IMG/VR virus record: IMGVR_UViG_3300005512_000250
Coordinates: 1-28,395 of that record
DNA: 28,395 bases
Reading direction: 5' to 3' (one strand)
Source of the DNA: a virus
Taxonomy: Duplodnaviria; Caudoviricetes
Shown: in pieces, positions 9,527-22,928 of the stretch
Position numbering within the stretch: position 1 is the first letter of the stretch
Layout: every line of letters begins with the position of its first letter
The notes under the pieces: model-generated
What the model saw: only the letters and a program-made list of their open reading frames with translations
The model's database searches: none
What the model was told of the DNA's origin: nothing
Program-made: the position numbers and the translations under genes

Positions 9527-11416
9527 ATGCCCCTTACCAAACTTCAGTTCCGTCCGGGAGTAAACCGCGAGACTACCTCCTACGCTAACGAGGGTGGTTG
9601 GTACGATTGCGACAAGGTTCGGTTCCGGTTTGGTGTGCCCGAAAAGATCGGTGGTTGGCAGAAAAAGTCAGGCACGACCTTCCTCGGCACTTGTAGGGCG
9701 TTGCATCCATGGGTCGCGTTAGATGGGTCGCAGTATCTTGGGGTGGGCACTCACCTCAAGTATTACATTGATGAAGGCGGCGCGTTTAACGACATAACCC
9801 CAATCCGCGAGACCACGGCGGCGGGCGATGTTACGTTTGCCGCTGTCAATGGTAGCTCTACCCTTACGGTAACGGACAGCAACCACGGCGCATTGCAAGA
9901 CGACTTTGTCACGTTCAGTGGCGCGGTCACCCTTGGCGGTAATATCACGGCTGATGTGCTCAACCAAGAGTACCAAATCAGCAACGTGGTGAACGCCAAC
10001 ACCTATGAAATCATTGCCAAGGACACAAGCGGTGTAACCGTAGTGGCCGATGGCAGTGATACGGGTGATGGCGGCGCGGCAGTGGTCGGTGCCTACCAAA
10101 TCAACACGGGTTTGGATACAACCGTTGTCGGCACGGGCTGGGGCGCGGGAACTTGGGGCCGTGGTGGATGGGGCAGTGGTGCTAGCATCAGCGCAACGGG
10201 TGACCAGCTCCGCATTTGGTCGCACGATAACTTTGGCGAAGACCTCATTATTAACGTCCGCAACGGTGGCATCTACTACTGGGATAAATCTACCCAGTCA
10301 GCACCGTTTACGCGAGCCGTGGAGTTGAGCCAATTAAGCGGGGCCGATGCTACCACGCCAACGATTGCCAAGCAGGTCATAGTCAGCGACCGCGACCGCC
10401 ATGTGCTTGCTTTTGGCTGTGACCCGCAGACTAACATTGGCGTGCAAGACCCGTTGCTAATCCGTTTTAGCGACCAAGAGAACCCCCTGATTTGGGACGC
10501 ATTGCCAACCAATACCGCAGGCGACTTGCGCGTGGGTAGCGGCAGTGAAATCGTGTGCGCCGTGGAAACCCGCCAGCAGACGCTAGTGTTTACCGACGTG
10601 AGCGTGCACACCATGCAGTTCATCGGGCCTCCGTTCACTTTCGGTATCAACCAAATCAGCGAAAACACCACGATCATGGGGCCATTGGCGGCGGCGGCGG
10701 TAGACGACATCGTCTTGTGGATGGGGCAGGAAGAGTTTTACATCTACAACGGCAGTGTGCAAAAGCTCCCGTGTTCGGTGCGGTCGTATGTGTTTGATGA
10801 CTTCAACTTAGGCCAAGCCGAAAAGGTGACGTGCGGCACTAACAGCTCGTTTAGCGAGGTCTGGTGGTTCTATTGCTCTGCCAGCTCGGACGATCTTGAC
10901 CGTTATGTAGTCTACAACTATGCTGAGCAGGCGTGGTATTACGGGCAACTGACCCGCACTTGCTGGCTTGACCGTGGCATCAACCAAAACCCCATTGCCG
11001 CAGGGCGCGACGGTTACCTGTATCTGCAAGAGTTTGGCAATGACGATGGCAGTGCCAACCCGCCCACGGCGATCAACAGCTACATTGAGTCCAGCCAGAT
11101 TGACATTGGCGATGGCGAAAACTTTGTGTTCATGCGGCGGTTGATACCAGACGTCACGTTCATTGGCAGTGCCAGCCCAACCCCTGTGGTGGACTTTATA
11201 CTGGAAGCCCGCAATTTTCCAGGAGCCAACTACCGTACCAGCACGACCAATAACGTCGCGCGCACGGCTACGGTACCCATCGAACAGTTTACCGAGCAGG
11301 TGAACTTGCGGTTACGGGGCCGCTCGTTTGCGTTGAAAATCCAGTCTACTGATACAGGCGTCAACTGGCGCTTAGGGGCACCAAGGGTAGATATAAGACC
11401 TGATGGGCGGCGCTAA
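9527..11416 (+). CDS. Tail nozzle / tail tubular protein B-like (stabilisation protein)
   Basis: 629 aa. 'MPL.KLQFRPGVNRE.T.Y..EGGW.D.DKVRFR.G.PEKIGGW' start, beta-propeller-like composition and 'PDGRR' end. Lies just before the internal proteins. Confidence 0.8.
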   Translation: MPLTKLQFRPGVNRETTSYANEGGWYDCDKVRFRFGVPEKIGGWQKKSGTTFLGTCRALHPWVALDGSQYLGVGTHLKYYIDEGGAFNDITPIRETTAAGDVTFAAVNGSSTLTVTDSNHGALQDDFVTFSGAVTLGGNITADVLNQEYQISNVVNANTYEIIAKDTSGVTVVADGSDTGDGGAAVVGAYQINTGLDTTVVGTGWGAGTWGRGGWGSGASISATGDQLRIWSHDNFGEDLIINVRNGGIYYWDKSTQSAPFTRAVELSQLSGADATTPTIAKQVIVSDRDRHVLAFGCDPQTNIGVQDPLLIRFSDQENPLIWDALPTNTAGDLRVGSGSEIVCAVETRQQTLVFTDVSVHTMQFIGPPFTFGINQISENTTIMGPLAAAAVDDIVLWMGQEEFYIYNGSVQKLPCSVRSYVFDDFNLGQAEKVTCGTNSSFSEVWWFYCSASSDDLDRYVVYNYAEQAWYYGQLTRTCWLDRGINQNPIAAGRDGYLYLQEFGNDDGSANPPTAINSYIESSQIDIGDGENFVFMRRLIPDVTFIGSASPTPVVDFILEARNFPGANYRTSTTNNVARTATVPIEQFTEQVNLRLRGRSFALKIQSTDTGVNWRLGAPRVDIRPDGRR

Positions 11417-11712
11417 TGGCACGGTTGCTATCGCCCCCACAGTTTCCGCTGGCTCCCAAGGAGTACAGCCAGCAGTACCATAACGAGATAGTGCGGGTGT
11501 TCAGCGTGTTCTTGAACCAGTACCTATCTCCGGGAGAAGGTCGGCATACGGCACTAACGCTGACCGCATTGCAAACGGATGACGTAGGCTTGGAAACAGG
11601 TGCGTTGTTCCAACAGGAGGGGTTTGTAAAAATCGCTCTTGCCAACGTGCCACACGTCCGTGGCAGTAGCGCGACGGGCTCCGTAGGAACAGTAGACGTG
11701 GTGATCACATGA
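11416..11712 (+). CDS. Small virion protein (98 aa)
   Basis: TAATG-coupled to the nozzle gene; 'P.APKEY...Y' N-terminus. Confidence 0.75.
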   Translation: MARLLSPPQFPLAPKEYSQQYHNEIVRVFSVFLNQYLSPGEGRHTALTLTALQTDDVGLETGALFQQEGFVKIALANVPHVRGSSATGSVGTVDVVIT

Positions 11713-11939
11713 GCCAAGATTATTTGACCATGCCCAATGGGGCAAAGTACCTCCCAGCAACCAGCCAAGACACGGTGTCCTGTGCCAGTTGTTCAAACCT
11801 AGTGGATACCCCTGAGGAAATCGCTAGTTACCCTGCGGGGAACTGCCCTCAGTGTGGCAACCCGTGGACGGGTACGGAAACGAAAAGCACAAAAATTATG
11901 GTGACAATGCCCGTGGCACTGGGCGGGGCGACAATGTAG
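11709..11939 (+). CDS. Zinc-ribbon protein (CASC...CPQC)
   Basis: 76 aa, ATGA overlap, two CxxC pairs. Confidence 0.7.
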   Translation: MSQDYLTMPNGAKYLPATSQDTVSCASCSNLVDTPEEIASYPAGNCPQCGNPWTGTETKSTKIMVTMPVALGGATM

Positions 11940-11969: not shown

Positions 11970-12037
11970 GCTTTTAGCGTCTAATTCAGGAACTCACGCG
12001 GCCTGCATATCTCCCATACAGAACAAAGGTGGATAAT

Positions 12038-13681
12038 ATGCAAGGTATCGAGCAATTAGGATATGAAGTCGTTGAGGAGCCAATGGTTCCGGAAGGCGGC
12101 GTTCAACAGTTCAAGCAAGCGGCGGATATGCTGGCTGAGTTTGGGCGCAACGGCGATACCTACATTGTTCACGCCGCCGAAGGCGAGACGGTGGTTCCCA
12201 TGGAAGTGCTTGAGGCAAACCCCCGCCTTAAGCAGATGCTTTACCAACAGCTTGAGGAAATGGGCGTAGACCCACAGCGGTATGTGGTGGGCAACGAGCT
12301 CAACAGCATCAACCCTGTAACTGGTCGGCCCGAGTTTTTCTTCAAGAAGATTTTCAAAGCTGTTAAAAAGGTCGTTAAGAAGGTTGTCAACGTCGTCAAA
12401 AAGGTTGCGCCGATTGTTCTACCTATCGTCGCGCCGTTCCTCCTGCCTGCAATGCCATTGGCGTTCGCGTCGGGTTTGGGTAGTTTGGCGGGTGGCTTGA
12501 TAGCTGGGCAAGACTTTAAGACTGCGCTCAAGGGCGCGGTGATTACAGGTGGTATTGCGGGCCTCGGTAATATGATGGCTGGCGGTAGCTTTATGGGTAG
12601 CAAGATCAACCCGACTGGCGGCTTTGGTGACGTAGGCTTGAAAGACGCCTTTACGCTGGATAACCCCTTTACCAAAGCGATGCCTTCTAACCTGCAAGCC
12701 ATTGCGGATACCGCCGCACCCCGTGGCGAAACTATCCTCGAGAAAATGGGCATGGGCGGTGGCGAAAGCTCCGCTTACGGTGCCGATGCAACAGGCGAAG
12801 GTGCCGCAACCATGAGCAGTCGTGGTACTGCCGCCCCGTCCGAAGGGTTCTTTAGCGACGTCAAGCGCGCAGTGGTTCCGGGCGATAACTACGGCTTTGG
12901 TGAGCTGTATAGCGACTACATCAGCCCGAGCCGCGCAAGCATCCAGCCCAACATGGCAGAGCTGAGCGCGCAAGGGGCCACAGCAGGTGCCGAGGCCGTA
13001 GCACGCACCAATGCGGCACTCACCGCCGCAGGGCAAGCACCGCTTACGGACGCCGCAAGTAGCGCCATTATCAACCGTTCCATTGAATCGGCGGCGGCAA
13101 ACGCGGCTCCTGGATTCTTGACCAAGTACGGGCCGCTAGCGGCAACGGCACTCGGTGGCGCGGCAGTGAGCGACGCCGTGCTGGGCACCAACCTGATTAC
13201 CCCGCCTGAGGAACAGCCGATTGACATGCCGCCCACGGGTGATGAATTGTTGGCGCAAGACCCTGCCAAATACGGGTTTGACTTTGCACGCTACGTTGGG
13301 GACAACCCCTACTATCAGCGCCAAGCTGACGCACAGCCGTCTGGCGGAGCACAAGCGGCGGCGTCTAACGCCTACGCTAACCCCTACATGGCGGCACTCC
13401 TGCAAGGCACGCAGGCACCGCCTGTACAGTCGGGCACCATTCAGTCCAGCCCCATGGGTGCGTATGGTCAGAACACTCAGTTCGCGCGCACTTTGTTCGC
13501 CGCTCAGGGTGGCGAAATCGTGGGTCCTGGAACACCAACCAGTGATTCTATTCCAGCCATGTTAAGCGATGGGGAGTTTGTCATGAACGCCCGAGCTGTC
13601 CGTGGCGCTGGCGGCGGTGACCGCCGAGCAGGCGCTCAGCGGATGTATCAGCTCATGCGTCAGTTTGAGCGGAGGGCGTAA
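12038..13681 (+). CDS. Internal virion / DNA ejection protein 1
   Basis: ATG 12038 after AAGGTGGA (GTG 12029 is an alternative start). Cationic amphipathic helix, Gly-rich hydrophobic segments, and a C-terminal GPGTPTSDSIPAMLSDGEFV motif also known from tape-measure proteins. Confidence 0.75.
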   Translation: MQGIEQLGYEVVEEPMVPEGGVQQFKQAADMLAEFGRNGDTYIVHAAEGETVVPMEVLEANPRLKQMLYQQLEEMGVDPQRYVVGNELNSINPVTGRPEFFFKKIFKAVKKVVKKVVNVVKKVAPIVLPIVAPFLLPAMPLAFASGLGSLAGGLIAGQDFKTALKGAVITGGIAGLGNMMAGGSFMGSKINPTGGFGDVGLKDAFTLDNPFTKAMPSNLQAIADTAAPRGETILEKMGMGGGESSAYGADATGEGAATMSSRGTAAPSEGFFSDVKRAVVPGDNYGFGELYSDYISPSRASIQPNMAELSAQGATAGAEAVARTNAALTAAGQAPLTDAASSAIINRSIESAAANAAPGFLTKYGPLAATALGGAAVSDAVLGTNLITPPEEQPIDMPPTGDELLAQDPAKYGFDFARYVGDNPYYQRQADAQPSGGAQAAASNAYANPYMAALLQGTQAPPVQSGTIQSSPMGAYGQNTQFARTLFAAQGGEIVGPGTPTSDSIPAMLSDGEFVMNARAVRGAGGGDRRAGAQRMYQLMRQFERRA

Positions 13682-13684
13682 CGC

Positions 13685-16600
13685 ATGGCTACCGAAACCC
13701 AATATGTCTACAGCAATGAATCGCCTGAGATTGCGGCCCGCAAGCTCGGGCTGATTGACCTTGTAAAAGACCTCACCAGTCAGCCCGTTGTAGGCGGGTT
13801 GCCCGCGTTCCAAGTAGCTCCGCAACAGGGGTTGCAAACCCAAGCGTATGACCTTGCTCGTACGGGTGTAGGGGCGTTTGCTCCGTATATCAGCACGGCG
13901 GCACAGCGCGTAGGCGGGGGTATTGATCAACTTGGTCAGGCCGCAGGTCAGTATGGCGCTGGGGCGGGTATGGTCAACACTGCACTAGCAGGGTACGCCC
14001 CGATACAGGAAGGCGCTCTAACAGGTGTGGGCCGTGCCGCAGAACTCGGCCAAGCCGCAAGTGGCGCGGGCGTGCTGGGCATTGGTCAGCAACTCGCAGG
14101 CATGCAACCGTACCTGCAAGATGCCGCGCTCGGCCTTGGCATGGGCGCAACCGCAGGCGAGCAAGCCTACGCGGACACTCTTGCCCAACTGCAAGGGGCC
14201 ACAACGGGCGCTCGTGGCGTGGCAACAGCCGCAGGTGCAGGAGGCCGTGGCGTAGCAGGTGACCTAGCTACTCAGCTTGGCGGGTTGCAACAGGGTTTAG
14301 GCTCCTTGGGTCAAACAGGCATGGACATTGCCGGAACCACAGGAGCAACGGCGGCAGACATTGCACGCGCCGCCGCAGGCACTATGGGCGATGCCGCCCG
14401 AGGTGCACAGCAAATTGGGACAGAAACAGCGTTTGGGGCAGGTGTCCAGCGGGATCTTGCACAAGCAGGACTCGCTGGCGCTACCGATGCCGCCCGCGCT
14501 CAAGTAGCCGCCGCGCAAGGTGACCTAGCAGGTGCCGTAGGCGGTGCTCGGGGCCAAGCCGCCGCTCTGCAAGCAGGGTTGGCAGGTGCCGCTCAGCAAG
14601 CTGGTCAACAAGTAGGGGCGGGCCAACGCCTTATGGCCGATGCACTTACGGGTGCTCGGGGCCAAGCACAGGCCGCACAGACCAACCTCGGTACGATTTC
14701 TGGCGGTGCCCTTGGGCGTATTCCTGGAATTCAACAGGGCCTTGCCGACGTTACGGGCGCGGCTCGGGGCGTTGTAGGTGGCGCAGGCCAACAGCTACAG
14801 GATATCGCCACGGGTGCTCGTGGGCAGGTTGCTCAAACAGGTCAAGATTTTGCAGGAATTACGGGCGGTGCTCGTGGTGTTGTCGGTCAGGCTGGGCAGG
14901 GCTTCCAAGACGTAGCTGGCGCGGCTCGGGGCCAAGTGGCTCAAACGGGCCAAGATTTCTCAGGCATTATGGGCACCAGCCGAGGTTTGGTAGGTCAAGC
15001 CGCGCAAGGGTTCCAAGATGTTGCAGGTGCCGCCCGAGCAGGTGTTGGCGGCGCACAGACTGCCGCCGATATTGCCGCGCAACGGGCGCGGGCGAGCACC
15101 GCAGGCGCACAGCAGGCCCTTGGTCAGGCTGGGCAGTTTGGTATGGGCGCGGCGCAACAGGGTATCGGGGCGTTGGCTGGCACTACAGACCAGTTTGATC
15201 CGACCAGCGCAACCCGTTACTTCAACCCCTACGAAGATGCCGTGGTTCAGCAAGCACTGGCCGATGTTCAGCGCGCCAGCGATATTGCAGGCCAAGGCGA
15301 GCGTGCCCAAGCAGTCGCCGCTGGGGCCTTTGGCGGAGCGCGGTCTGGCATTGTTGCTAGCGAGCGTGCCCGCAACGCACTGGAGCAACAGGCTCGTACC
15401 GCCGCACAGCTACGGCAGGCGGGCTTCCAGAGCGCACAGGGGCAAGCACAGAACGCCTTCGAGGCCGCACAGCAACGCGCACAACAGGCGGCACAGCTTA
15501 CAGGCGCATTGGGCGCTCAGGGCGCTGGTACCGCTCTACAGGCGGCAAGCCAAGCAGGTCAGCTTGGTCTCAGCGCAGAGCAACTGGCACAGCGTGGCGC
15601 ACTGGAAAGTGGGCAACTCGGCCTCAGTGCAGAGCAACTGGCACAAGCAGGAGTCAGCGATCTGGCTCGCACGGGTCTCAGCGCCGAACAACTTGCAGGT
15701 CAGCTCGCGCAAGCACGGGGGCAACTCGGCCTCAGCGCAGAACAGCTCGCACAGGCTGGTATCAGCGACTTGGCCCGTACAGGTCTCAGCGCAGAACAGC
15801 TCGCAGGCCAACTGGCGCAAGCCCGTGGGCAGATGGGTCTTACAGCAGAGCAACTGGCGCAGTCTGGCGTCAGCGACCTCATGCGGGCGGGCCTCAGTGC
15901 AGAACAGCTTGCTCAAGCAGGCGTTACCCAAGGCGGACAGATGGCGCTTACCGCAGATCAGCTTGCTGGTCAATTGGCTGGCGAAGCAGGCCGCATGGGT
16001 ATGTCGGCCGAGCAACTGGCGGCGAGCCTTGCAGGACAGTCGGGCCAGCTTGGCCTAAGTGGCGCAGAACTCCTTGGGCGTTTGACGCAACAGGGTGGTG
16101 CCGCAGGCTTGCAAGCCGAGCAACTGGCAGGTCAACTTGCACAAGCACGGGGCCAGCTAGGCTTGAGCGCCGAGGAACTTGCACAGCGTGGCGCGGGGCA
16201 GGCAGGTCAGATTGGCCTGAGCGCAGAACAACTCGCCAGCCAAACCGCGATGCAAGGCCAACAGCTCGCAGGGCAACTGGCTCAGCAAGCGGGGGCCATG
16301 GGCATTTCTGCACAAGAACTCGCAGGCCGTTTGGGTCTACAGGGTACCGCGCAAGCCGCGAGCAACGCTCAAGCGTCTGGTCAGCTTGCCAATATGGCGG
16401 CAAGCATGGGTATGAACGCCGAGCAACTGGCGGCACAGTACGGCATGACCGCCGAACAGCTTGCAGGTCAGCTCGCGCAAACGGGCGGAGCACTGGGCAT
16501 GCAGTCCGCAGGGTTGCGGGCAGATACCGCAAGTCAGCTCGGCCAACTGGGCGCGCAGTATGGGCAGATTGGTATTGGTGGCGAGGAAGCCGCCGCCCGT

Positions 16601-17074
16601 CTGGGCCTTGCAGGAGCCGACATTACAGGCCAGATGGCAGGGCTTGCCAACCAAATCGGCACGCAGGGGGCACAACTGGGCCTCAGCGGTGCGGGCACGT
16701 TGCGGGACATTGGTTCGGGCTACGGGGCGCTGGGTCAGGCATACGGTGCGCTTGGAACACAAACCGCCGCTCTGGGCGAACTGGGCCAGACCATGCAGAT
16801 CAAGGATATGGACTACCTGTCCAAGCTGGGGTCGCAACAGCAACAGTTCGAGCAGGCAAAACTGGACGCCGCCCGCCAAAGCGACCTGCAAACCATCTAC
16901 GAACCGTACCAGCGAGCAGGCTTCTACAGCGATATCCTGCGCGGGGCACCAAGCTCGCAGTCGGTTATTACGCAGACCTCGTCGCCTAACCCGTCGTTGC
17001 TCAACCAGCTTACGGGCGCGGCGGCAACAGGCATTGGTCTGGCAGGCGCGGCTAGCAAATCGGGGATTATTTAA
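13685..17074 (+). CDS. Internal virion / DNA ejection (pilot-like) protein with long Ala/Gly/Gln helical repeats, 1129 aa
   Basis: GGAGG RBS. Central 'YFNPY...AGAFGGAR' core typical of phage DNA-transfer proteins, 18/11-residue repeats and a hydrophobic Gly-rich C-terminus. Confidence 0.8.
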   Translation: MATETQYVYSNESPEIAARKLGLIDLVKDLTSQPVVGGLPAFQVAPQQGLQTQAYDLARTGVGAFAPYISTAAQRVGGGIDQLGQAAGQYGAGAGMVNTALAGYAPIQEGALTGVGRAAELGQAASGAGVLGIGQQLAGMQPYLQDAALGLGMGATAGEQAYADTLAQLQGATTGARGVATAAGAGGRGVAGDLATQLGGLQQGLGSLGQTGMDIAGTTGATAADIARAAAGTMGDAARGAQQIGTETAFGAGVQRDLAQAGLAGATDAARAQVAAAQGDLAGAVGGARGQAAALQAGLAGAAQQAGQQVGAGQRLMADALTGARGQAQAAQTNLGTISGGALGRIPGIQQGLADVTGAARGVVGGAGQQLQDIATGARGQVAQTGQDFAGITGGARGVVGQAGQGFQDVAGAARGQVAQTGQDFSGIMGTSRGLVGQAAQGFQDVAGAARAGVGGAQTAADIAAQRARASTAGAQQALGQAGQFGMGAAQQGIGALAGTTDQFDPTSATRYFNPYEDAVVQQALADVQRASDIAGQGERAQAVAAGAFGGARSGIVASERARNALEQQARTAAQLRQAGFQSAQGQAQNAFEAAQQRAQQAAQLTGALGAQGAGTALQAASQAGQLGLSAEQLAQRGALESGQLGLSAEQLAQAGVSDLARTGLSAEQLAGQLAQARGQLGLSAEQLAQAGISDLARTGLSAEQLAGQLAQARGQMGLTAEQLAQSGVSDLMRAGLSAEQLAQAGVTQGGQMALTADQLAGQLAGEAGRMGMSAEQLAASLAGQSGQLGLSGAELLGRLTQQGGAAGLQAEQLAGQLAQARGQLGLSAEELAQRGAGQAGQIGLSAEQLASQTAMQGQQLAGQLAQQAGAMGISAQELAGRLGLQGTAQAASNAQASGQLANMAASMGMNAEQLAAQYGMTAEQLAGQLAQTGGALGMQSAGLRADTASQLGQLGAQYGQIGIGGEEAAARLGLAGADITGQMAGLANQIGTQGAQLGLSGAGTLRDIGSGYGALGQAYGALGTQTAALGELGQTMQIKDMDYLSKLGSQQQQFEQAKLDAARQSDLQTIYEPYQRAGFYSDILRGAPSSQSVITQTSSPNPSLLNQLTGAAATGIGLAGAASKSGII
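14156..15139 (+). repeat. N-arm repeat array (ARG-anchored 18-aa units; 54-bp period with 108-bp higher-order repeat)
   Basis: For example ARGQVAQTGQDFAGITGG / ARGVVGQAGQGFQDVAGA / ARGQVAQTGQDFSGIMGT / SRGLVGQAAQGFQDVAGA. Confidence 0.9.
15566..16495 (+). repeat. C-arm repeat array (GLSAEQLA-anchored 18-aa units; 54-bp period with 108-bp higher-order repeat)
   Basis: For example GLSAEQLAQAGVSDLART / GLSAEQLAGQLAQARGQL / GLSAEQLAQAGISDLART / GLSAEQLAGQLAQARGQM. Confidence 0.92.
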
Positions 17075-19617
17075 TGGCGAATGGTATTTATCAGCGTAGC
17101 TTGTTTGGGGGGAACGCGCCCCCGCCGCCGAGTTCGGTGGGCGTAGGCATCACCAGTGGGTTAGAAGCCCCGATGATGGACCCTATGGCAACCCCCGTAC
17201 AAGACCCGCAACAGCAATTATTTGACCGTGCAGAAGGCGAAGCAGGTATGTCAACTGCCGCAGGCTTGCAAGCGGCGGCCGAATCTATGCAGGAGCTCTA
17301 TGGCGAACTGGACAACGCGGAAAGCATCGAAGAGGTTATTAACTCACTGCGAGGCGATGAACAGCCAATGTCCGCCCGCTACAGCGAACTGGCTGAGATG
17401 GTTGGTGAGGCCGATGCAAAGAAGACACCGGAGTCGGTCCTAGCGTTGTTGCAACCCACCTTCCAGATTATGGAAGTCATGCAACAAAACGTTCCAGAAG
17501 GTGGCATTGCCAATGCCCCGATGATGATGGGGGGTGGCGAGCAGGCCGCCGAGGATTTTAGCGGGGCCTCTTCTGTGCAAGCGCCTCGGTCAGAAGAGGC
17601 CATGCTCCGCATCGCCATGGGCGAACAGCCCGTTATGCGCCAAGACGGCTCCCCGCCTACTGGTGAGGTGGTTCCGTTTAGTGGACCAATGCTCACTGGT
17701 CCTGCCAGCACTCCGTCAAACACGGGGTTTAGGTTTACTGGGACTACCGTGCCGACCCTGCAAGGTCTTCCTAACATGAACACCGCGCAGAATGTAATGA
17801 CTGATTACATGAACCTAATCAGCCCTTACCTGCAAGGTGTGGGTGGCGGCAGTGATGCCAACAGTTTGATTGATTACCGTTTGGGCGCGCTGGACCCGTA
17901 TATGGTTCAGCCCCGCACCCGTGAAGAAATCCTTGCCGACCAGCAAGCGTTCTTTGGCGATGCGGACACGAACGATGCCCAAGTGCAGGCGCTACTCGCG
18001 CTCGCCAAATACGGTAGCCAAATTAGCCAGACTCCTGGAAGCCTCTTGCAAGCGTTGGTTAAGCCCGCAGGTGAGTTTGCCGCTGACCTCAGCAAAGTGG
18101 CGGCGCAAAAGGCCGCACAAGAGCGCCGCGCTAAGGAGTTTGCATACTCCACGGCGGAAAGCGAGCAGGCACAGCGCCGTAACGCAGAACTCCAAATTGC
18201 GATGGGTGCCATCAACCAAGCGGCAAGCGGAGCCAACAGCTTTGCTGAGGCGCGGTTGCGGGCGGCGTCAGAAGCCGCCAAGCTCGGCATTACCATGTCT
18301 GAGAACGAGCGCGATGCCGCTAACCGTTCGCTGGAATTGGCGTGGACCGCCAACAATCAGTACGGCGTCACGGGCACCGAGACGTTTATGAAGCCCAAAG
18401 AGGGTGGCGGGTTTGACATCATTGCAGTGCGCCGCACGGCAGATGGCCCACGGATGCTCCAAGACGGCAACCTTGTGCCGATTCCAGAGGGCTACTACCC
18501 CGCCGATGCTACGACGCTCCGTGCCGCTACGGCAAGCGGTGGGGTTGACTTTAGCGATGCAAGCCGCGTAGACCTGCTGGTACCTGACTCGCAGTCCAGA
18601 ACGGGCTTCCGCCAAGTTCCTGGGATCTACGCCAATGGCGCATACTTTGTCAGCCCAGATGGCAACCCACGCAACGCTACTCTTGCTCCCGCAGGGTTTA
18701 TCCAAGGTACGGAGAGCGATGTACTCAGTGTATCGCCCGCTGATTCCGTGGGTCGTGTATATGCAACCGTCACGGCAGGCCCGCTTGCAGGCCGCACGTT
18801 CCTCACTGCTATCAACAATCAGCCCGTTGGCGGCGTAGCGTTTGAGCTTGAAGAGCCTGTGTACGAAACCAATGCCGAAGGCCAGCGCACGCTTGTCCGT
18901 GGTAACCCAATGGTGGAAAACGTGGGCCGTTCGGGCGTGACCTTTGGTCAGCTCAGCCCACAGCAGGTGGAAAACGCACAGCGTAAGGTTTCCGATATGA
19001 CCGCCGCACTGGCGCAGGGTAACGATGTGCTTTCGGCCATTCCGCAGGCGGTTGGCCCGCTGAACAGCGTGCGGTCGTTCACGTCTAACGCTATTGCGGC
19101 CTTCGCCCCTGATTCGTGGGATGGCATGTTGGAATACGCGCAAACTGAGCGTGGTCGCCAGCAGATGTCGTTGTTTGGTCGTACATTGGCCCGCGCCGCC
19201 GCACTGTCCGACCGCTACGCCGTGGCAGAACAAACCTTGATTACGCAGTTGGCCGAAGACCCCGCAGGGTTCTTCCGTAACCCTGAGATGTCGGCAGTCC
19301 GTTTCCAAGAACTGCTCCGCACACTGCAAAACGAACTTAGCGAGAACCGTGCGCTCCTTGGCGACACCGATATCTTGCGCGTGCGCGAGGTTCCAACAGG
19401 CACGGCTAACGATCCGTTCTTGTACACCTCGCCCGGACATTTTGAATACCTGAGCATTGCCGCCGCCAACGGTGGTAACCTAGACGGCATGTACATGAGG
19501 ATGACCGCCAGCGAAGCACAACAGGCGGGCCTACCCGAAGACCTCTGGCGTGGTAAAGAGCCCGGAGAACTGGTAGACCTACGGTTGTCTAACCGCATGT
19601 TTGGAAGGGGGCAGTAA
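17074..19617 (+). CDS. Internal virion protein (847 aa)
   Basis: TAATG-coupled at both ends; low-complexity N-terminus and helical Ala/Gln-rich middle. Role inferred from position. Confidence 0.7.
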   Translation: MANGIYQRSLFGGNAPPPPSSVGVGITSGLEAPMMDPMATPVQDPQQQLFDRAEGEAGMSTAAGLQAAAESMQELYGELDNAESIEEVINSLRGDEQPMSARYSELAEMVGEADAKKTPESVLALLQPTFQIMEVMQQNVPEGGIANAPMMMGGGEQAAEDFSGASSVQAPRSEEAMLRIAMGEQPVMRQDGSPPTGEVVPFSGPMLTGPASTPSNTGFRFTGTTVPTLQGLPNMNTAQNVMTDYMNLISPYLQGVGGGSDANSLIDYRLGALDPYMVQPRTREEILADQQAFFGDADTNDAQVQALLALAKYGSQISQTPGSLLQALVKPAGEFAADLSKVAAQKAAQERRAKEFAYSTAESEQAQRRNAELQIAMGAINQAASGANSFAEARLRAASEAAKLGITMSENERDAANRSLELAWTANNQYGVTGTETFMKPKEGGGFDIIAVRRTADGPRMLQDGNLVPIPEGYYPADATTLRAATASGGVDFSDASRVDLLVPDSQSRTGFRQVPGIYANGAYFVSPDGNPRNATLAPAGFIQGTESDVLSVSPADSVGRVYATVTAGPLAGRTFLTAINNQPVGGVAFELEEPVYETNAEGQRTLVRGNPMVENVGRSGVTFGQLSPQQVENAQRKVSDMTAALAQGNDVLSAIPQAVGPLNSVRSFTSNAIAAFAPDSWDGMLEYAQTERGRQQMSLFGRTLARAAALSDRYAVAEQTLITQLAEDPAGFFRNPEMSAVRFQELLRTLQNELSENRALLGDTDILRVREVPTGTANDPFLYTSPGHFEYLSIAAANGGNLDGMYMRMTASEAQQAGLPEDLWRGKEPGELVDLRLSNRMFGRGQ

Positions 19618-22600
19618 TGGCAGATCCTAACGCACCAAGCGGAGGCTTCACGCTTCGCCCCCCTAGCCAGCAGATGATTGATCAGCGCCTGAACGAACAA
19701 CGGTTCGGGGCTGGTCGTGCTGGTAGCTTGCCGTTTGACCCCCGCACACAGGACCAACGTGGCCCTGATGCTGGCCCACCGCCCATGGCTCCCATTACCA
19801 TGGAAGCCGCAGCTCAGCCTAGCCGTGTAACGGGCCGCTTTGAAGACCTCACGCCTGATCAACAGCGTGCGTTCAGTGACCCTAACCTCGCCCAACGTGC
19901 GGTTGGTGGGGTCAACCAGTTTGTAGCCGACAGTGGGCTGGGTGCGTTATCCCGTGGCTTTAACGACATCATTCTGGCCTTGCCCGACATGGCGATCAAC
20001 GCCATTGCAAGCGGGCTGGAGAGCGCAGGCATTGTGGAAGAAGGTGCAGTTGACCGTAACTTCCTCAACCGCGTGTTTAACAGTAGTGACTACCGCACTC
20101 AGCGCGTCATTATCCCGTATGTGCTCAACTACGGCGTAGACGACTACATTGGTCAAACCGAAGCCGAAGGCAACTTTGACCAGTATATGCGTGCTGGTGG
20201 TCAGGGTGTGGCGCTTGCCGCACCGTTTATCGGGGCTTCTGCCCGTGGCGCTCAGCTTACCGCCGCCGCACCTAACGTAATCAACGCGGCTGGTCAGCGT
20301 GTACTGCCCGCCAATGCTAGCACGACACAGCGCGTGGTAGAGCAAATGATTGCCCCCTACCGCAGTGCTCCTGCCGCAACCGCAGGACTGGAAGCAGGCT
20401 TGGGCGCGGTATCGGCCATGGGCGTGCAAGCCGAACAAGACCTCTTTGGCACCACTACAGGGATTGGTGGTCTACTGCCCTTGGCTCCCGTTGCACTGTA
20501 TTACGGCGGCAAGACTGCCCTTACCCGAGGCCCCGTTGGCCGTGGCGTCAACTGGGTTGGCGACCGCGTAGGCGGTGTAGTAGATGAGGCCCGCGTTACC
20601 GCAGGCACAGCACCCGCAGGGGAAGGCCCTCGTGGTGCCGCCGCCCGTGGTCAGCTAGGCGAGGCTATCACCCAAGCGGTGGAAACGCCCCAAGGGCAGG
20701 CCAACATCGCCCGTGCGGCAGAAATCGAAAGCCGCCTGAGCCCATACGCCGACCAACCCGTATCCCTTACCCCCGCTGAGCGGACCATGGACGTTCCGTT
20801 GCTGGAAACGCAACGCCGTGCCGAGGCTACAGGTAGCCCTGAGTTTACGCGGCAAAACGCCGACCGTAAGACCAATGCGCTGACCGCGATTGAGCGCTTC
20901 CGCGAAGGCGAACTTACAGGCAACCCGCTTGTGGATGCCCCGCTCTACATCTTGGATGAGGCTACAGGCCAGTACCGCCTGACCATTGCCCCTATTGATG
21001 AGGGCCTAGATGACGTCACGTTCCAGCTCAGCCGTTTGGCCGATGCCGATACGGGTGCGTATCCACGCCTGAGTGATCGCCGCCCCGTTGGACAAACCAT
21101 CCGTGAAACGGTGGTCAACGCGCACCGCGCCGCTATGGAACAAGCGCGGACCATGGCTAACAGGCTCAATATCAACAACGCCGACCAGCTTGCCAGCCGT
21201 GATGCTACGGCAACGGCGCGGCAGTCGGTACGCGATTTGTTGCTCACCCGCCAAGGTGAGGAAGCCTTGAGCTACGAGGGCTTGCCCCGTTTGGTGCGGC
21301 AGTTTGTGGAAAGTGATTTGGACCGCATTAGCTTCCAAGACTGGAAGTCTTTCCGCGACCAAGTGAGCCAAGAAATCGGCCGAGCTATTGCGCTCAAGCG
21401 CGGCTCAGACACCCGTGCCCTAACGGTGCTGGCGGAGCAACTGGACGACATGGCATCGGCCTACGGACGCACCAGCCAGAAGTTTGAAGATTACCGCCAG
21501 TGGTATCAGGCAAACGTGGTCCAGCCGTTTGAGCGCAGTGGCGTGATTGCCATTACTGCTCGCGGTCAGGGCGGTACCAAAGCTCAACCCGTGTACTACC
21601 TGCCTGATGAGCGGGTGGCGCAAACCTTCTTGGAAAACAGCGACACTGCACGGCAGTTCATGGCCCTGTTTGGCGACAACCCCGAGCGCATTGCCGACAT
21701 GCGGGCAGTGGTGCTGGACCAAATCCGCGACCGCGCATACGACTCGGCCCGTGGTACGTTCCGCCCCAATGCCATCAACACCTACATGAACCGCAACCGC
21801 GAAGTGTTGCAGAACCTCGGTTTGTATGACGAGCTCAGCAATACGCAAGGCTTGCTCACTGCACAGCTAGAGCGCCAAGCCGAACTGACTGCGCGCCGCC
21901 GTGCCATCAACCAAAACCAGTTGTTCCGTGCTATTGCCAGTGCTGAGGGCCGTAATGACCCCGAGCGGTTGCTGGACGAAGCCCTGCGGAACCCTGCGCT
22001 GATGCGCGACCTGCGGCAAAGCGTAACCCGTCCCGGACCTACACAGGTGCGGGCAGACTTGGGTATTAGCGCCGACGATGCCGCCGAGGCCTTCCGTGCC
22101 GCCGTTACCCAACGACTGTTTGCCAACGCGCCCGATGCCATGGCAAACCCTGCATCTTTCAAGGAGTTCCTTGTGCGTAACGAGCGCGTGTTGGACGCCG
22201 CGTTTGATCGTTCGCATATTGACAATATGTACCTCGTGGCTGACGCCGCTGAGCGCGTATTGGCAACAGGCATGCCCGTGGGCAAGGGCGTCATGCCTGA
22301 GGACATAATTACGCGGCTCACCAACCGTTTGGGCACCACCCCTGCGGGTATCAGCAACCGCTTTATCGCCGTTCAGGAAGGCCGCTTAGGTCCCAAGGCG
22401 GCGATCGGTTATGTGCTCAGCCGTGCCATCCGCCAGCAAAGCAGTGCGCGAGCAGATGCTTTGTTCCGCGAGATGATGTTTAACCCCGACCTTGCCCGCA
22501 CGTTGACTACGGAAGGCCCCTCGCCGCTTTCCGTCAGCGAGCCTATTGGGCGCAGAATCAATGCGTATATGTTCAACGTAGGTGTTGATTATGGCGAAGG

Positions 22601-22928
22601 TATGGAGGCAGGCCCGCCTGCACCGCCCATCCAAATTGAAATGCAACCTGCACTGCCCGACCAAGGTAGTGTCACGCCGCCCGCTCCGCCGATTGGTGGT
22701 AGCGGTACTCAAACTGCTCAGGCGACTCCGCCAGTGGCTCCGACCCCTGCTCCAGTAACGCCTGCACAGATTGCCCCACCTGCAATGCCTCCCGCCTCGG
22801 GTGCTACGACGGGTGCAACCACTCCAGCAGTGAGTGCATCACAGCTATTCCCATTTGACCCAACGCTTGCCGCCATTGAACAACGGCGCACGGCCCAAGG
22901 TCAGGGAATTATGTCTTTAGGTCAGTAG
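19617..22928 (+). CDS. Large internal virion / ejection protein (1103 aa)
   Basis: Gly-rich hydrophobic segments in the N-terminal third, helical body, Pro-rich tail and 'FPFDP...GIMSL' end. Last large gene of the structural module. Confidence 0.7.
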   Translation: MADPNAPSGGFTLRPPSQQMIDQRLNEQRFGAGRAGSLPFDPRTQDQRGPDAGPPPMAPITMEAAAQPSRVTGRFEDLTPDQQRAFSDPNLAQRAVGGVNQFVADSGLGALSRGFNDIILALPDMAINAIASGLESAGIVEEGAVDRNFLNRVFNSSDYRTQRVIIPYVLNYGVDDYIGQTEAEGNFDQYMRAGGQGVALAAPFIGASARGAQLTAAAPNVINAAGQRVLPANASTTQRVVEQMIAPYRSAPAATAGLEAGLGAVSAMGVQAEQDLFGTTTGIGGLLPLAPVALYYGGKTALTRGPVGRGVNWVGDRVGGVVDEARVTAGTAPAGEGPRGAAARGQLGEAITQAVETPQGQANIARAAEIESRLSPYADQPVSLTPAERTMDVPLLETQRRAEATGSPEFTRQNADRKTNALTAIERFREGELTGNPLVDAPLYILDEATGQYRLTIAPIDEGLDDVTFQLSRLADADTGAYPRLSDRRPVGQTIRETVVNAHRAAMEQARTMANRLNINNADQLASRDATATARQSVRDLLLTRQGEEALSYEGLPRLVRQFVESDLDRISFQDWKSFRDQVSQEIGRAIALKRGSDTRALTVLAEQLDDMASAYGRTSQKFEDYRQWYQANVVQPFERSGVIAITARGQGGTKAQPVYYLPDERVAQTFLENSDTARQFMALFGDNPERIADMRAVVLDQIRDRAYDSARGTFRPNAINTYMNRNREVLQNLGLYDELSNTQGLLTAQLERQAELTARRRAINQNQLFRAIASAEGRNDPERLLDEALRNPALMRDLRQSVTRPGPTQVRADLGISADDAAEAFRAAVTQRLFANAPDAMANPASFKEFLVRNERVLDAAFDRSHIDNMYLVADAAERVLATGMPVGKGVMPEDIITRLTNRLGTTPAGISNRFIAVQEGRLGPKAAIGYVLSRAIRQQSSARADALFREMMFNPDLARTLTTEGPSPLSVSEPIGRRINAYMFNVGVDYGEGMEAGPPAPPIQIEMQPALPDQGSVTPPAPPIGGSGTQTAQATPPVAPTPAPVTPAQIAPPAMPPASGATTGATTPAVSASQLFPFDPTLAAIEQRRTAQGQGIMSLGQ

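Follow-up and report, generated by a model that had tools for sequence, protein, structure and literature searches.

Organization of the ejection locus

The window is the whole stretch of DNA that was analysed, 28,395 nucleotides from a virus of the class Caudoviricetes (IMG/VR record IMGVR_UViG_3300005512_000250). It combines SU10-type adaptors with a podophage nozzle, and is a partial genome lacking the capsid and the full fibre set, the virus being known from this one contig. All features described here lie on the plus strand. The tail nozzle/hub gene (9527..11416) encodes a 629-aa protein that matches phrog_3287 (E=3e-71), PDB entry 9nwi_Y (513 aa; E=4e-13) and 8zkm_E, 'nozzle of release VP1' (E=1.4e-4). 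Upstream of the gene under study lies one for a 550-aa protein with hydrophobic helices (12029..13681), which has a C-terminal motif in common with tape-measure families and is possibly a fourth ejected protein.

The open reading frame at 13685..17074 encodes the 1129-aa protein, an ejection protein with a predicted hairpin fold, and is the first of three large ejection genes in the window. The second (847 aa; 17074..19617) occupies the periplasmic-tunnel slot and is gp20/gp15-like by position alone, with zero matches at E<=0.001 in family profile scans. The third (1103 aa; 19617..22928) lies in the inner-membrane slot and is gp16-like by position; in phage DSL-LC04, the gene in this slot is annotated as 'DNA transfer protein'.

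The 1129-aa protein comprises two long arms between conserved elements. The N-terminal cap (residues 14–67; 13724..13885) has near-invariant columns at P14, A18, P40, A45, A54, G61 and P67, and an invariant G63. The N arm (residues 68–500; 13886..15184) is an Ala/Gly/Gln helix with a 3.6-residue period and Arg anchors at 18-residue steps, with steps of 11 and 25 also present. A conserved kink, FDP...NPY (residues 501–516; 15185..15232), breaks the helix in the model and contains the invariant P506. The conserved tip (residues 517–595; 15233..15469) is a helix-turn-helix in both models and includes the GAFGG turn (residues 547–551; 15323–15337), of which G547, A548, F549, G550 and G551, together with R553, are invariant in 85 sequences. 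The C arm (residues 601–1034; 15485..16786), the mirror partner of the N arm, is made up of GLSAEQLA-type 18-residue repeats that carry Glu anchors. It is followed by the conserved C-terminal cap (residues 1035–1089; 16787..16951; G1049, Q1057, D1083 and P1089 invariant) and by a Gly-rich hydrophobic segment (residues 1104–1129; 16994..17071), which contains the top 19-residue hydropathy windows of the protein (1.05–1.08). A membrane belt is not evident in the arms.

A family of short-tailed phage ejection proteins

The C-terminal 124 residues match phrog_4287, 'DNA ejection protein' (E=6.1e-6), as do 29 of 50 aligned homologues (best 1.6e-9), whereas the full-length protein had zero matches in Pfam and PHROG scans. 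A profile built from short members recovers gp27 of Sinorhizobium phage phiM5 at 3e-30. Judged from its sequence, the protein is a member of phrog_4287, and its gene is the first ejection gene of an HTVC023P-like short-tailed phage; the profile matches and the gene slot bear out the first-pass annotation, which had called it an ejection protein.

Besides phiM5 gp27, the named relatives are PaP4/Pa223 gp56 (the PaP4 protein is 98.7% identical to the Pa223 gene product), HTVC023P gp81, CRP-901 gp33 and DSL-LC04 WJZ48114. These proteins have the conserved tip and caps, and their genes lie after the nozzle and ahead of two large virion genes, but they measure 278–468 aa rather than 1129 aa. Pa223 gp56 was described as a gp14-like outer-membrane channel/ejection protein and was found in virions by mass spectrometry; it is invisible in the cryo-EM tail, was assigned to the capsid interior, and yields a hollow nonamer with AlphaFold3. 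The word 'hairpin' does not occur in the Pa223 text, and arm coupling was not found there. The phiM5 gp27 protein is part of the virion proteome according to its record note. HTVC023P is a podovirus by morphology, and its group was reported to outnumber every other known viral group in the sea. A tblastn search with the tip alone found no isolate.

Among the 120 longer homologues that were listed, 39 end in a Peptidase_S74 chaperone, as does phiM5 gp27. This domain is known from trimeric fibres, and would suit a needle, probe or ruler present in few copies, perhaps as a trimer, whose task is to touch or pierce the membrane or to hold the virion at a distance; DNA would then travel through other proteins. 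We consider such a role improbable, given that the family occupies the ejection slot, that Pa223 gp56 is modelled as a hollow nonamer, and that the known hairpins of this slot build channels of 6 or 12 copies.

Mirror register between the arms

The first-pass annotation had described mirrored anchors, and all 19 pairs were reproduced: reading outward from residues 468 and 628, both arms have spacings of 12x18, 11, 18, 11, 25, 11 and 18. At i+j=1101, the pairs are 12 R/E plus L/D, G/A, Q/Q, A/Q, M/T, E/A and G/E; of the six said to lack both residues, the identities are correct, but L/D does contain an acid. The midpoint, 550.5, falls in GAFGG as proposed, and the 18/5 periodicity was recovered. 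The arms had been given as 310 residues each, a limit that proved too narrow, as the register runs from residue ~67 to ~1034 and on into the end caps. The arms have no sequence similarity to one another (best BLASTP E=0.61).

In a scan that is independent of the hand-placed anchors, i+j=1101 came first of 800 anti-diagonals when like charges were subtracted from opposite ones (14 opposite, 2 like), followed by 1137 (12 and 3) and 1119 (9 and 2). Across the 19 anchors, the presence of R and E co-varies (Fisher p=2.6e-4, or 1.8e-3 counting D as acid), in a test whose units are repeats and hence non-independent. Residue-volume complementarity within the protein has several maxima, at sums spaced by 18, and so gives 1101 no special place, and mirror symmetry of pLDDT is non-discriminating (rho 0.44 at 1100 versus 0.68 at 910).

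No DNA inverted repeat was found behind the mirror: the five short inverted pairs present all have their centres away from the tip. Within the N arm, adjacent 108-nt copies share no more than 66% identity, and within the C arm no more than 81%; the longest exact match at 108-nt spacing is 17 nt. This divergence rules out an assembly artefact as the source of the repeats. A mirror in the DNA similarity of the repeat units is weak and not significant (Mantel r=0.19, p=0.08, 13 units).

Predicted hairpin fold

In the AlphaFold2 model, residues ~436–667 form an antiparallel hairpin, whereas the outer arms are modelled poorly; the monomer prediction that had been suggested as a check thus agrees with the proposal in its inner part. 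Confidence is modest (pLDDT of 60 and 65, pTM of 0.30–0.32), and within each arm the models cover the predicted fold over the inner ~115 residues. An antiparallel fold-back with a central conserved turn is supported both by the sequence evidence and by prediction. Modelled residues 497–599 align to residues 38–139 of 7ey7_A (Z-score of 8.3 and r.m.s.d. of 5.0 over 100 residues), a score that unrelated helical hairpins also reach. The AlphaFold2 model of residues 436–667 aligns to antiparallel hairpins. VIA Z-scores (best 9.1 and 10.7) reflect hairpin shape alone and were rejected as a sign of a relative. Foldseek searches of the PDB with the short model gave zero matches at E<=0.001 (chemoreceptor hairpins appeared at E>=0.5), matches in BFVD are uncharacterised phage proteins, and no member with a solved structure turned up when PDB sequences were searched, with the family profile as query or with PaP4 gp56.

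Coupled arm lengths across relatives

Of 241 proteins examined, 120 have both anchors and were measurable. The N arm spans 70–484 residues in this set, and the C arm exceeds it by 40–45 residues in 105 proteins (slope 1.00, r=0.97), the remaining 15 being unbalanced. The relationship holds in 50 dereplicated homologues (slope 1.00, r=0.99) and in another, separate group of 70 proteins from the loci (slope 0.98, r=0.997). The 1129-aa protein is the longest measured, with an N arm of 484 residues against at most 355 in all others. The two caps are predicted to pair at the open end of the hairpin, because the offset between the arms is constant.

Among 59 disjoint pairs of nearest relatives, both arms changed equally (within 2 residues) in 46. 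Thirty-three pairs of equal-sized indels occupy mirror positions (slope 1.01, r=0.994), with an offset of 6.2±5.4 residues against an expected 7, and the 48 distinct arm lengths are phased to 3.605 residues per turn (R=0.74, where the null reached at most 0.55). In 44 homologues, with the query left out, the equivalent of 1101 is the sole charge peak over 75 registers; the charge score is 8.8 per 1000 for a protein's own arms and 3.9±0.6 once arms are swapped (highest of 300, 5.65). The proposed Arg/Glu ladder is therefore supported by the homologues' charge peak and by the comparison of own with swapped arms, and the homologues show no second, Asp/Arg ladder (2 of 63 pairs at the peak register).

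The arms thus keep a mirror register, change by equal mirror-placed indels in whole helical turns, and show covariation of Arg in the N arm with Glu in the C arm. Since two unrelated halves gain and lose equal numbers of residues at mirror positions, they very likely form one helical hairpin; arm coupling and the inner AlphaFold2 model together uphold the giant antiparallel hairpin centred on GAFGG. The mirror-placed equal indels and the locking of the arms also favour the earlier suggestion that length is set by gain and loss of paired repeats. It is scarcely credible that the mirror reflects chance, an assembly artefact or DNA-level symmetry, with the arms unpaired. The repeats are of low complexity, the unit-similarity mirror falls short of significance, and 13 of the 59 nearest-relative pairs are unbalanced (10 of these 13 being near-identical pairs), but indels are coupled in both size and position in independent sets, which effectively refutes this explanation, and the divergence of the copies and the lack of a DNA inverted repeat also count against it.

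Variation was also seen at strain level: in near-identical strains, paired skips leave each arm 36 residues shorter. The N-arm block (108 nt, 36 aa; 14903..15010) is missing from such strains, the joint 14902->15011 being present in seven of eight runs, with zero cover at this site in run X17. For the C-arm block (108 nt, 36 aa; 15611..15718), the joint 15610->15719 was present in two of the eight runs, short flanking letters indicate it in four others, and it was absent from view in runs X6 and X12. The long allele of the window was not seen at either block in the eight runs examined.

Comparison with known ejection proteins and tubes

The slot of this gene is already known for antiparallel hairpins in short forms, P22 gp7* and T7 gp14. 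The gp7* monomer folds back and places a central fingertip on the hub, forming a 24-helix extracellular channel, with its hydrophobic C-terminus in the outer membrane (bioRxiv 10.64898/2026.09.03.749273). It resembles the 1129-aa protein in being the product of the first ejection gene, in its Ala/Gln/Gly-rich composition and in the fold-back that is predicted for the latter, and three motifs align in the same order with the phrog_4287 family. However, gp7* has 229 aa, bridges a gap of ~6 nm, and has two C-terminal membrane helices and no repeats; the single C-terminal segment of the 1129-aa protein has a hydropathy of 1.08, versus 1.31 for the two segments of gp7. Alignment to 59 gp7 relatives with hhalign was not significant (probability 3%, E=0.015; E=0.12 for the reversed control), another gp7 profile comparison gave an HH probability of 0.4%, and PF25688, the Pfam family of gp7 (phrog_598), had zero matches in 50 members at E<=5, or in gp81, gp56 or gp27. 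In ESM space, gp7 is a neighbour (0.88), which is a lead only, and we regard it as a putative homologue.

The ejected forms of T7 gp14 and of gp41 of the phiKMV-like phage Ar-KM are two-helix antiparallel hairpins, present in six copies at the nozzle. The tip model aligns to 7ey7_A from this group, but these proteins have ~190 aa, with the hairpin inside the nozzle, and no sequence match to the family of the 1129-aa protein was found. The 318-aa gp37 of phage A1002 forms a dodecameric 24-nm double-layer tube with an antiparallel nozzle-dock domain (PMC13730344). Its fold-back chain, dock domain and 12-copy tube recall the hairpin tube proposed here, whereas it is already assembled in the mature virion and its homology is undetectable: the KPP25 orthologue, recognised by its match to PDB 44nx/26la, gave E values of 0.05–1.6 against family profiles, which is not significant, and no significant match to phrog_4287. 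Sequence and profile comparisons thus showed no significant homology to gp7, gp14 or A1002 gp37.

A permanent, pre-assembled tail tube below the nozzle, as in A1002, would make the gene a determinant of tail length. The A1002 tube folds back and short family members are similar to gp37 in size, but this arrangement is unlikely in view of the non-significant KPP25 comparison, the podovirus morphology of HTVC023P, and the placement inside the capsid of Pa223 gp56, a virion protein unseen in the tail.

The tape measure protein of TP901-1 has 11/18-residue repeats, rises ~0.145 nm per residue and sets length by repeat number (PMC5099701), and phiX174 H is described as an amide-lined helical DNA tube with hendecads (PMC7354561). 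Both resemble the arms in periodicity, but they are single-pass helices, so that no second arm needs matching, and homology was not found. A tail tape measure protein, which would call for a long-tailed phage with genes for a tail tube and its chaperones and for a single-pass helix, was rejected, as the chain consists of two matched arms and the partial genome has SU10-type adaptors with a podophage nozzle. The analogy with phiX174 H, drawn in the first-pass annotation, finds no support in the form given, the protein being in the gp7/gp14 slot.

Proposed extracellular tube

We think it probable that the protein is a hairpin that docks its GAFGG turn on the nozzle and forms a tube to the outer membrane. 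By analogy with P22 gp7*, T7 gp14 and Ar-KM gp41, it would be stored in the head and then ejected, after which the conserved turn, a putative nozzle-docking 'fingertip', would dock on the tail nozzle, with the 629-aa nozzle/hub protein as its candidate partner. Some 6–12 copies would likely ring into a tube with the tip at the nozzle and the ends in the outer membrane, into which the hydrophobic C-terminus is predicted to insert as an anchor, a function suggested by P22 gp7*. The two downstream proteins would continue the channel through the periplasm and inner membrane. The tube would likely span an outer layer that is thick or varies (capsule, long LPS or S-layer) or a long stand-off set by the fibres. 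Its length probably evolves through slippage: a slip in one arm would either disappear again or be answered by one of the same size in the opposite arm.

Because gp7* and gp14 in that slot are hairpins with their turn on the nozzle, the product is likely an extracellular nozzle-to-outer-membrane tube rather than a whole trans-envelope conduit, as had been claimed earlier. The gp7/gp14 slot, the hydrophobic tail and the downstream genes, which are intact and uncorrelated in length, all point to an extracellular channel segment: two large genes follow in loci whatever the arm length, and hairpin length does not correlate significantly with neighbour gene lengths (rho 0.17, n=65; -0.01, n=38; 0.23, n=62). 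Two features sit less easily with an extracellular tube, namely that the 550-aa upstream hydrophobic protein could fill the outer-membrane role, and that the C-terminal segment is single and weaker than the two of gp7.

The same hairpin could instead form a tube that itself crosses the outer membrane and periplasm, possibly with the 550-aa protein as outer-membrane pore. The arms are long enough, their Gln-rich polar helix face (3.605 period) is like that of DNA tubes such as phiX174 H, and this lineage has an additional upstream gene for a hydrophobic protein. This arrangement seems rather doubtful: hydrophobicity is highest at the C-terminal tail and no belt is clear in the arms, both large downstream genes are retained at any arm length, the slot and family fit an outer component, and arms vary by 36 residues among strains and span about 50–484 residues overall, set against ~50 nm for the entire P22 channel.

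The earlier estimate of at least ~46 nm for the hairpin is too short, the variable arm giving ~65 nm and the whole ~80 nm; at 0.15 nm per residue, the predicted tube is ~80 nm here and ~15 nm for HTVC023P gp81. There is, in our judgement, an even chance that podophages of a widespread aquatic lineage, to which the HTVC023P group belongs, have a head-packed tail extension that is built at the cell surface and tuned between ~15 and 80 nm by matched insertions in its two unrelated antiparallel arms, with arm length reading out the thickness of the host's coat. The giant, continuously tunable form and the residue-exact co-evolution of two arms are new; length-coupled arms in an ejection protein were not reported in the literature searched, which consisted mostly of main texts available outside subscription.

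These results give a predicted structure and a proposed role to a gene listed as 'hypothetical' in the HTVC023P group, and a clean example of compensatory protein indels, comparable to changes in the paired strands of an RNA stem, for which alleles exist at strain level. They may also offer a scaffold for helical nanotubes of selected length. A tube tunable five-fold predicts that each matched 18-residue pair adds ~2.7 nm to the nozzle-to-membrane distance, and that unmatched insertions carry an infectivity cost. The work bears on how short-tailed phages gain access to a membrane beneath a thick surface layer, for which the known extracellular channel, that of P22, spans just ~6 nm; if the proposal is true, stubby-tailed phages could span capsules or other thick surface layers.

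Mirror lattice and charge register

The gene carrying the mirror-arm finding (window 13685–17074, + strand) encodes a 1,129-residue predicted ejection protein, in which an N arm and a C arm flank a tip with a GAFGG turn (residues 547–551). The anchor lattice of the first-pass annotation was reproduced exactly, with 19 pairs at i + j = 1101 (the sum of facing residue numbers), 12 of them Arg/Glu; its placement of the midpoint in GAFGG and its description of the arms as unrelated in sequence likewise hold. In an anchor-free scan this register ranks first among 800 anti-diagonals, with 14 opposite versus 2 like charges. Arg and Glu are present or absent together across the anchors (Fisher p = 2.6 × 10⁻⁴, the anchors being repeats and not independent), and in the inner array the N arm alternates between two units, which lie opposite two likewise alternating units of the C arm. 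No DNA inverted repeat underlying the mirror was found in the gene, and the DNA similarity matrix of 13 repeat units shows a weak mirror (r = 0.19, p = 0.08). Assembly error as the source of the repeats was rejected because neighbouring copies are too diverged.

Among 44 homologues, excluding the query, the equivalent of 1101 is the single standout of 75 registers, with 63 opposite pairs (11–39 in the others), 61 of which have the base on the N arm; one conserved position, R469/E632, supplies 22 of the 61. Swapping arms between homologues lowered the pair rate from 8.8 to 3.9 ± 0.6 per 1,000 (300 permutations, the observed rate never being reached) and, with R469/E632 set aside, from 7.2 to 2.3 ± 0.7 per 1,000 (300 permutations). 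The mirror-arm observation is real, and its origin by chance is highly improbable. Glycine lies opposite large hydrophobic residues in registers 3–4 positions off the charge register. As far as the sequence goes, the charge contacts may form within one chain or between ring neighbours.

Coupling of arm lengths

Tip searches provided the best 120 of 292 and the best 120 of 956 proteins, or 241 with the query. The 120 with both end anchors above threshold were kept; the 121 left out are truncated or belong to subfamilies with other anchors. N-arm length spans 70 to 484 residues in the 120 proteins and C-arm length follows it (slope 1.00, r = 0.97), the C arm being longer by 40–45 residues in 105. 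The slope is 1.00 (r = 0.99) for 50 dereplicated proteins. HMM anchors give a slope of 0.98 both in 70 locus proteins, of which 66 come from viral contigs and 4 from isolates (r = 0.997), and, with subfamily offsets, in 223 of the proteins (r = 0.97).

Nearest relatives were compared as 59 disjoint pairs differing in length: 32 show the same residue change in both arms and 14 agree within two residues. The 13 unbalanced pairs, 10 of them from the 18 pairs with at least 97% identity, may represent short-lived unbalanced alleles or assembly slips. In the near-identical homologue pairs P0020/P0021, P0014/P0016, P0042/P0043 and P0022/P0031, an 18-residue difference either is confined to one arm or runs in opposite directions in the two; these are candidate unbalanced intermediates, or assembly slips. 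Equal-sized indels, paired by hand from 25 of 31 aligned pairs, agree in distance from the tip (33 indel pairs; slope 1.01, r = 0.994; offset 6.2 ± 5.4 versus 7 expected), and where two indels occur their order is mirrored between the arms. These indels measure 7, 18, 25, 29, 36, 43, 54 residues and similar. Set against a helix of 3.605 residues per turn, 48 distinct arm lengths fall in phase (R = 0.74; the null reached at most 0.55). The arms are therefore predicted to run as unbroken, almost straight helices in which only whole turns can be gained or lost.

In CRP-901 gp33 (L002:8791–10176, − strand), about five 12-residue N-side units, by eye, lie opposite about five 18-residue C-side units, matching in unit number, not in residue number; the extension resembles an enlarged FDP...NPY kink in which a partly extended strand lies on a helix.

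Strain variants

Part of the hairpin gene was found in 20 of 24 listed sequencing runs (12 studies), labelled freshwater, estuary, marine and oyster. Along the gene, strains were compared in eight runs from eight studies. In seven of them the N arm lacks 108 nt (14902 joined to 15011); a 108-nt C-arm skip (15610 to 15719) is listed in runs X1 and X3, and short flanking letters (10–30 nt) in X2, X5, X17 and X4 point to the same or an equivalent skip. The blocks encode residues 407–442 and 643–678, whose mirror positions overlap in the same 36-residue array. The common strain allele therefore probably lacks 36 residues per arm relative to the window, whose longer allele was not seen at the two 108-nt sites in these eight runs. 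Dense nucleotide differences in related strains at 15043–15133 and 13690–13864, one patch adjoining the N-arm block, suggest recombined alleles.

Predicted structure

AlphaFold2 returned helix–GAFG–helix for a 365-residue member (pLDDT 60) and for the query (pLDDT 65, pTM 0.32), with poorly reliable outer arms. In shape likeness only, the query model aligns with Smc (436–667, Z 10.7, r.m.s.d. 12.2), a chemoreceptor (442–653, Z 10.3) and T7 tail complex 7ey7 chain A (497–599), which we read as gp14 from its residue range against the T7 gp14 description. The output carries no contact list for the monomer check proposed at first pass, but residues about 436–667 of the query model align to antiparallel hairpins. 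We consider the single antiparallel helical hairpin proposed there very likely. Its length, put at no less than ~46 nm at first pass, is estimated to be larger (about 65 nm variable arm, 80 nm total; 15 nm for HTVC023P gp81).

Family and gene neighbourhood

The family, phrog_4287, takes in HTVC023P gp81, CRP-901 gp33, phiM5 gp27, which belongs to the virion proteome, and PaP4 gp56, 98.7% identical to a Pa223 gene described as encoding a gp14-like outer-membrane channel protein present in virions, invisible in cryo-EM and predicted to be a hollow nonamer (bioRxiv 10.1101/2025.06.11.659172). Among the matches listed, 39/120 longer homologues (P0065–P0120) bear a C-terminal Peptidase_S74 domain, which would suit a low-copy needle or ruler, a role we consider quite unlikely. 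In the S74 subfamily, including L166:11053–12459, this chaperone lies behind the hydrophobic tail; the 'tailspike' or 'tail fiber domain' labels that such members carry in sequence records are probably wrong. Separately, KPP25 FF13_gp03 (L172:3772–4944, − strand) bears a 'photosystem II D1' label (phrog_35998) although the gene sits among the tail genes of a Pseudomonas phage; this label looks wrong.

The window covers 28 kb of a short-tailed phage genome and encodes two SU10-type adaptors and an 815-residue fibre bearing Peptidase_S74. A 629-residue nozzle, with best isolate matches in DSL-LC04 (41%), CRP-901, MinM2 and HTVC023P/027P, precedes four large genes (550, 1,129, 847 and 1,103 residues). 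HTVC023P is a podovirus; of the known marine viral groups, the one it belongs to is reported to be the most abundant (bioRxiv 10.1101/2019.12.14.876532). Two large genes usually follow the family gene where loci extend far enough, and across family loci their lengths do not track that of the hairpin gene. The trans-envelope conduit of the first-pass annotation is weakened by these intact downstream genes and by arms without a clear membrane belt, and is unlikely.

The 550-residue gene (12029–13681) encodes hydrophobic helices, an amphipathic segment rich in Lys and, towards the C-terminus (about residues 491–530), a motif common to eight PHROG families, mostly tape-measure. In DSL-LC04, HTVC023P and Caulobacter phage GB2A, a gene of this kind likewise stands ahead of the family gene. 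The 550-residue product is possibly a fourth ejected protein. Of two small genes 3′ of the nozzle (11416–11939), the 98-residue product, without a match in a family search, is a possible plug or needle, and the 76-residue product has two CxxC pairs. CRP-901 has a GNAT-like gene before the ejection gene, whereas the window has none there.

Comparison with known ejection proteins

Hairpins in this ejection-gene slot are already known, as are 11/18 repeats as length rulers (PMC5099701; PMC7354561). The new part is the giant tunable form with exact two-arm coupling, of which no report was found in the literature searched; PMC10386132, in the portion consulted, treats the phage lineage without this protein. 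The pre-assembled tail tube A1002 gp37 has the same fold-back design (PMC13730344), but homology searches with its KPP25 orthologue gave no significant match, and such a tube seems rather improbable here.

The P22 channel has twelve gp7* chains, every one of them folded back: residues 90–126 make up a fingertip that sits on the hub, and the extracellular channel is built of 24 gp7* helices. The C-terminus inserts into the outer membrane, and a ~6-nm gap leaks DNA when the internal proteins are missing (bioRxiv 10.64898/2026.09.03.749273). T7 gp14 (PMC11784390) and Ar-KM gp41 (bioRxiv 10.64898/2026.05.18.726046) are hairpins at the nozzle. Beside these hairpins, we infer a gp7-like layout because the invariant residues of the family concentrate at the turn and at both caps, the conserved protein ends, and because the C-terminal 26 residues are the most hydrophobic stretch of the protein. 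Homology to gp7 is at best an alignment of three motifs in order with 3% probability, and the likeness would be one of working. Twelve copies would occupy ~2% of an assumed 55-nm head. By analogy with gp7, the tip would dock on the nozzle, the caps and C-terminus would lie at the outer membrane, and the arms would form the channel wall between them.
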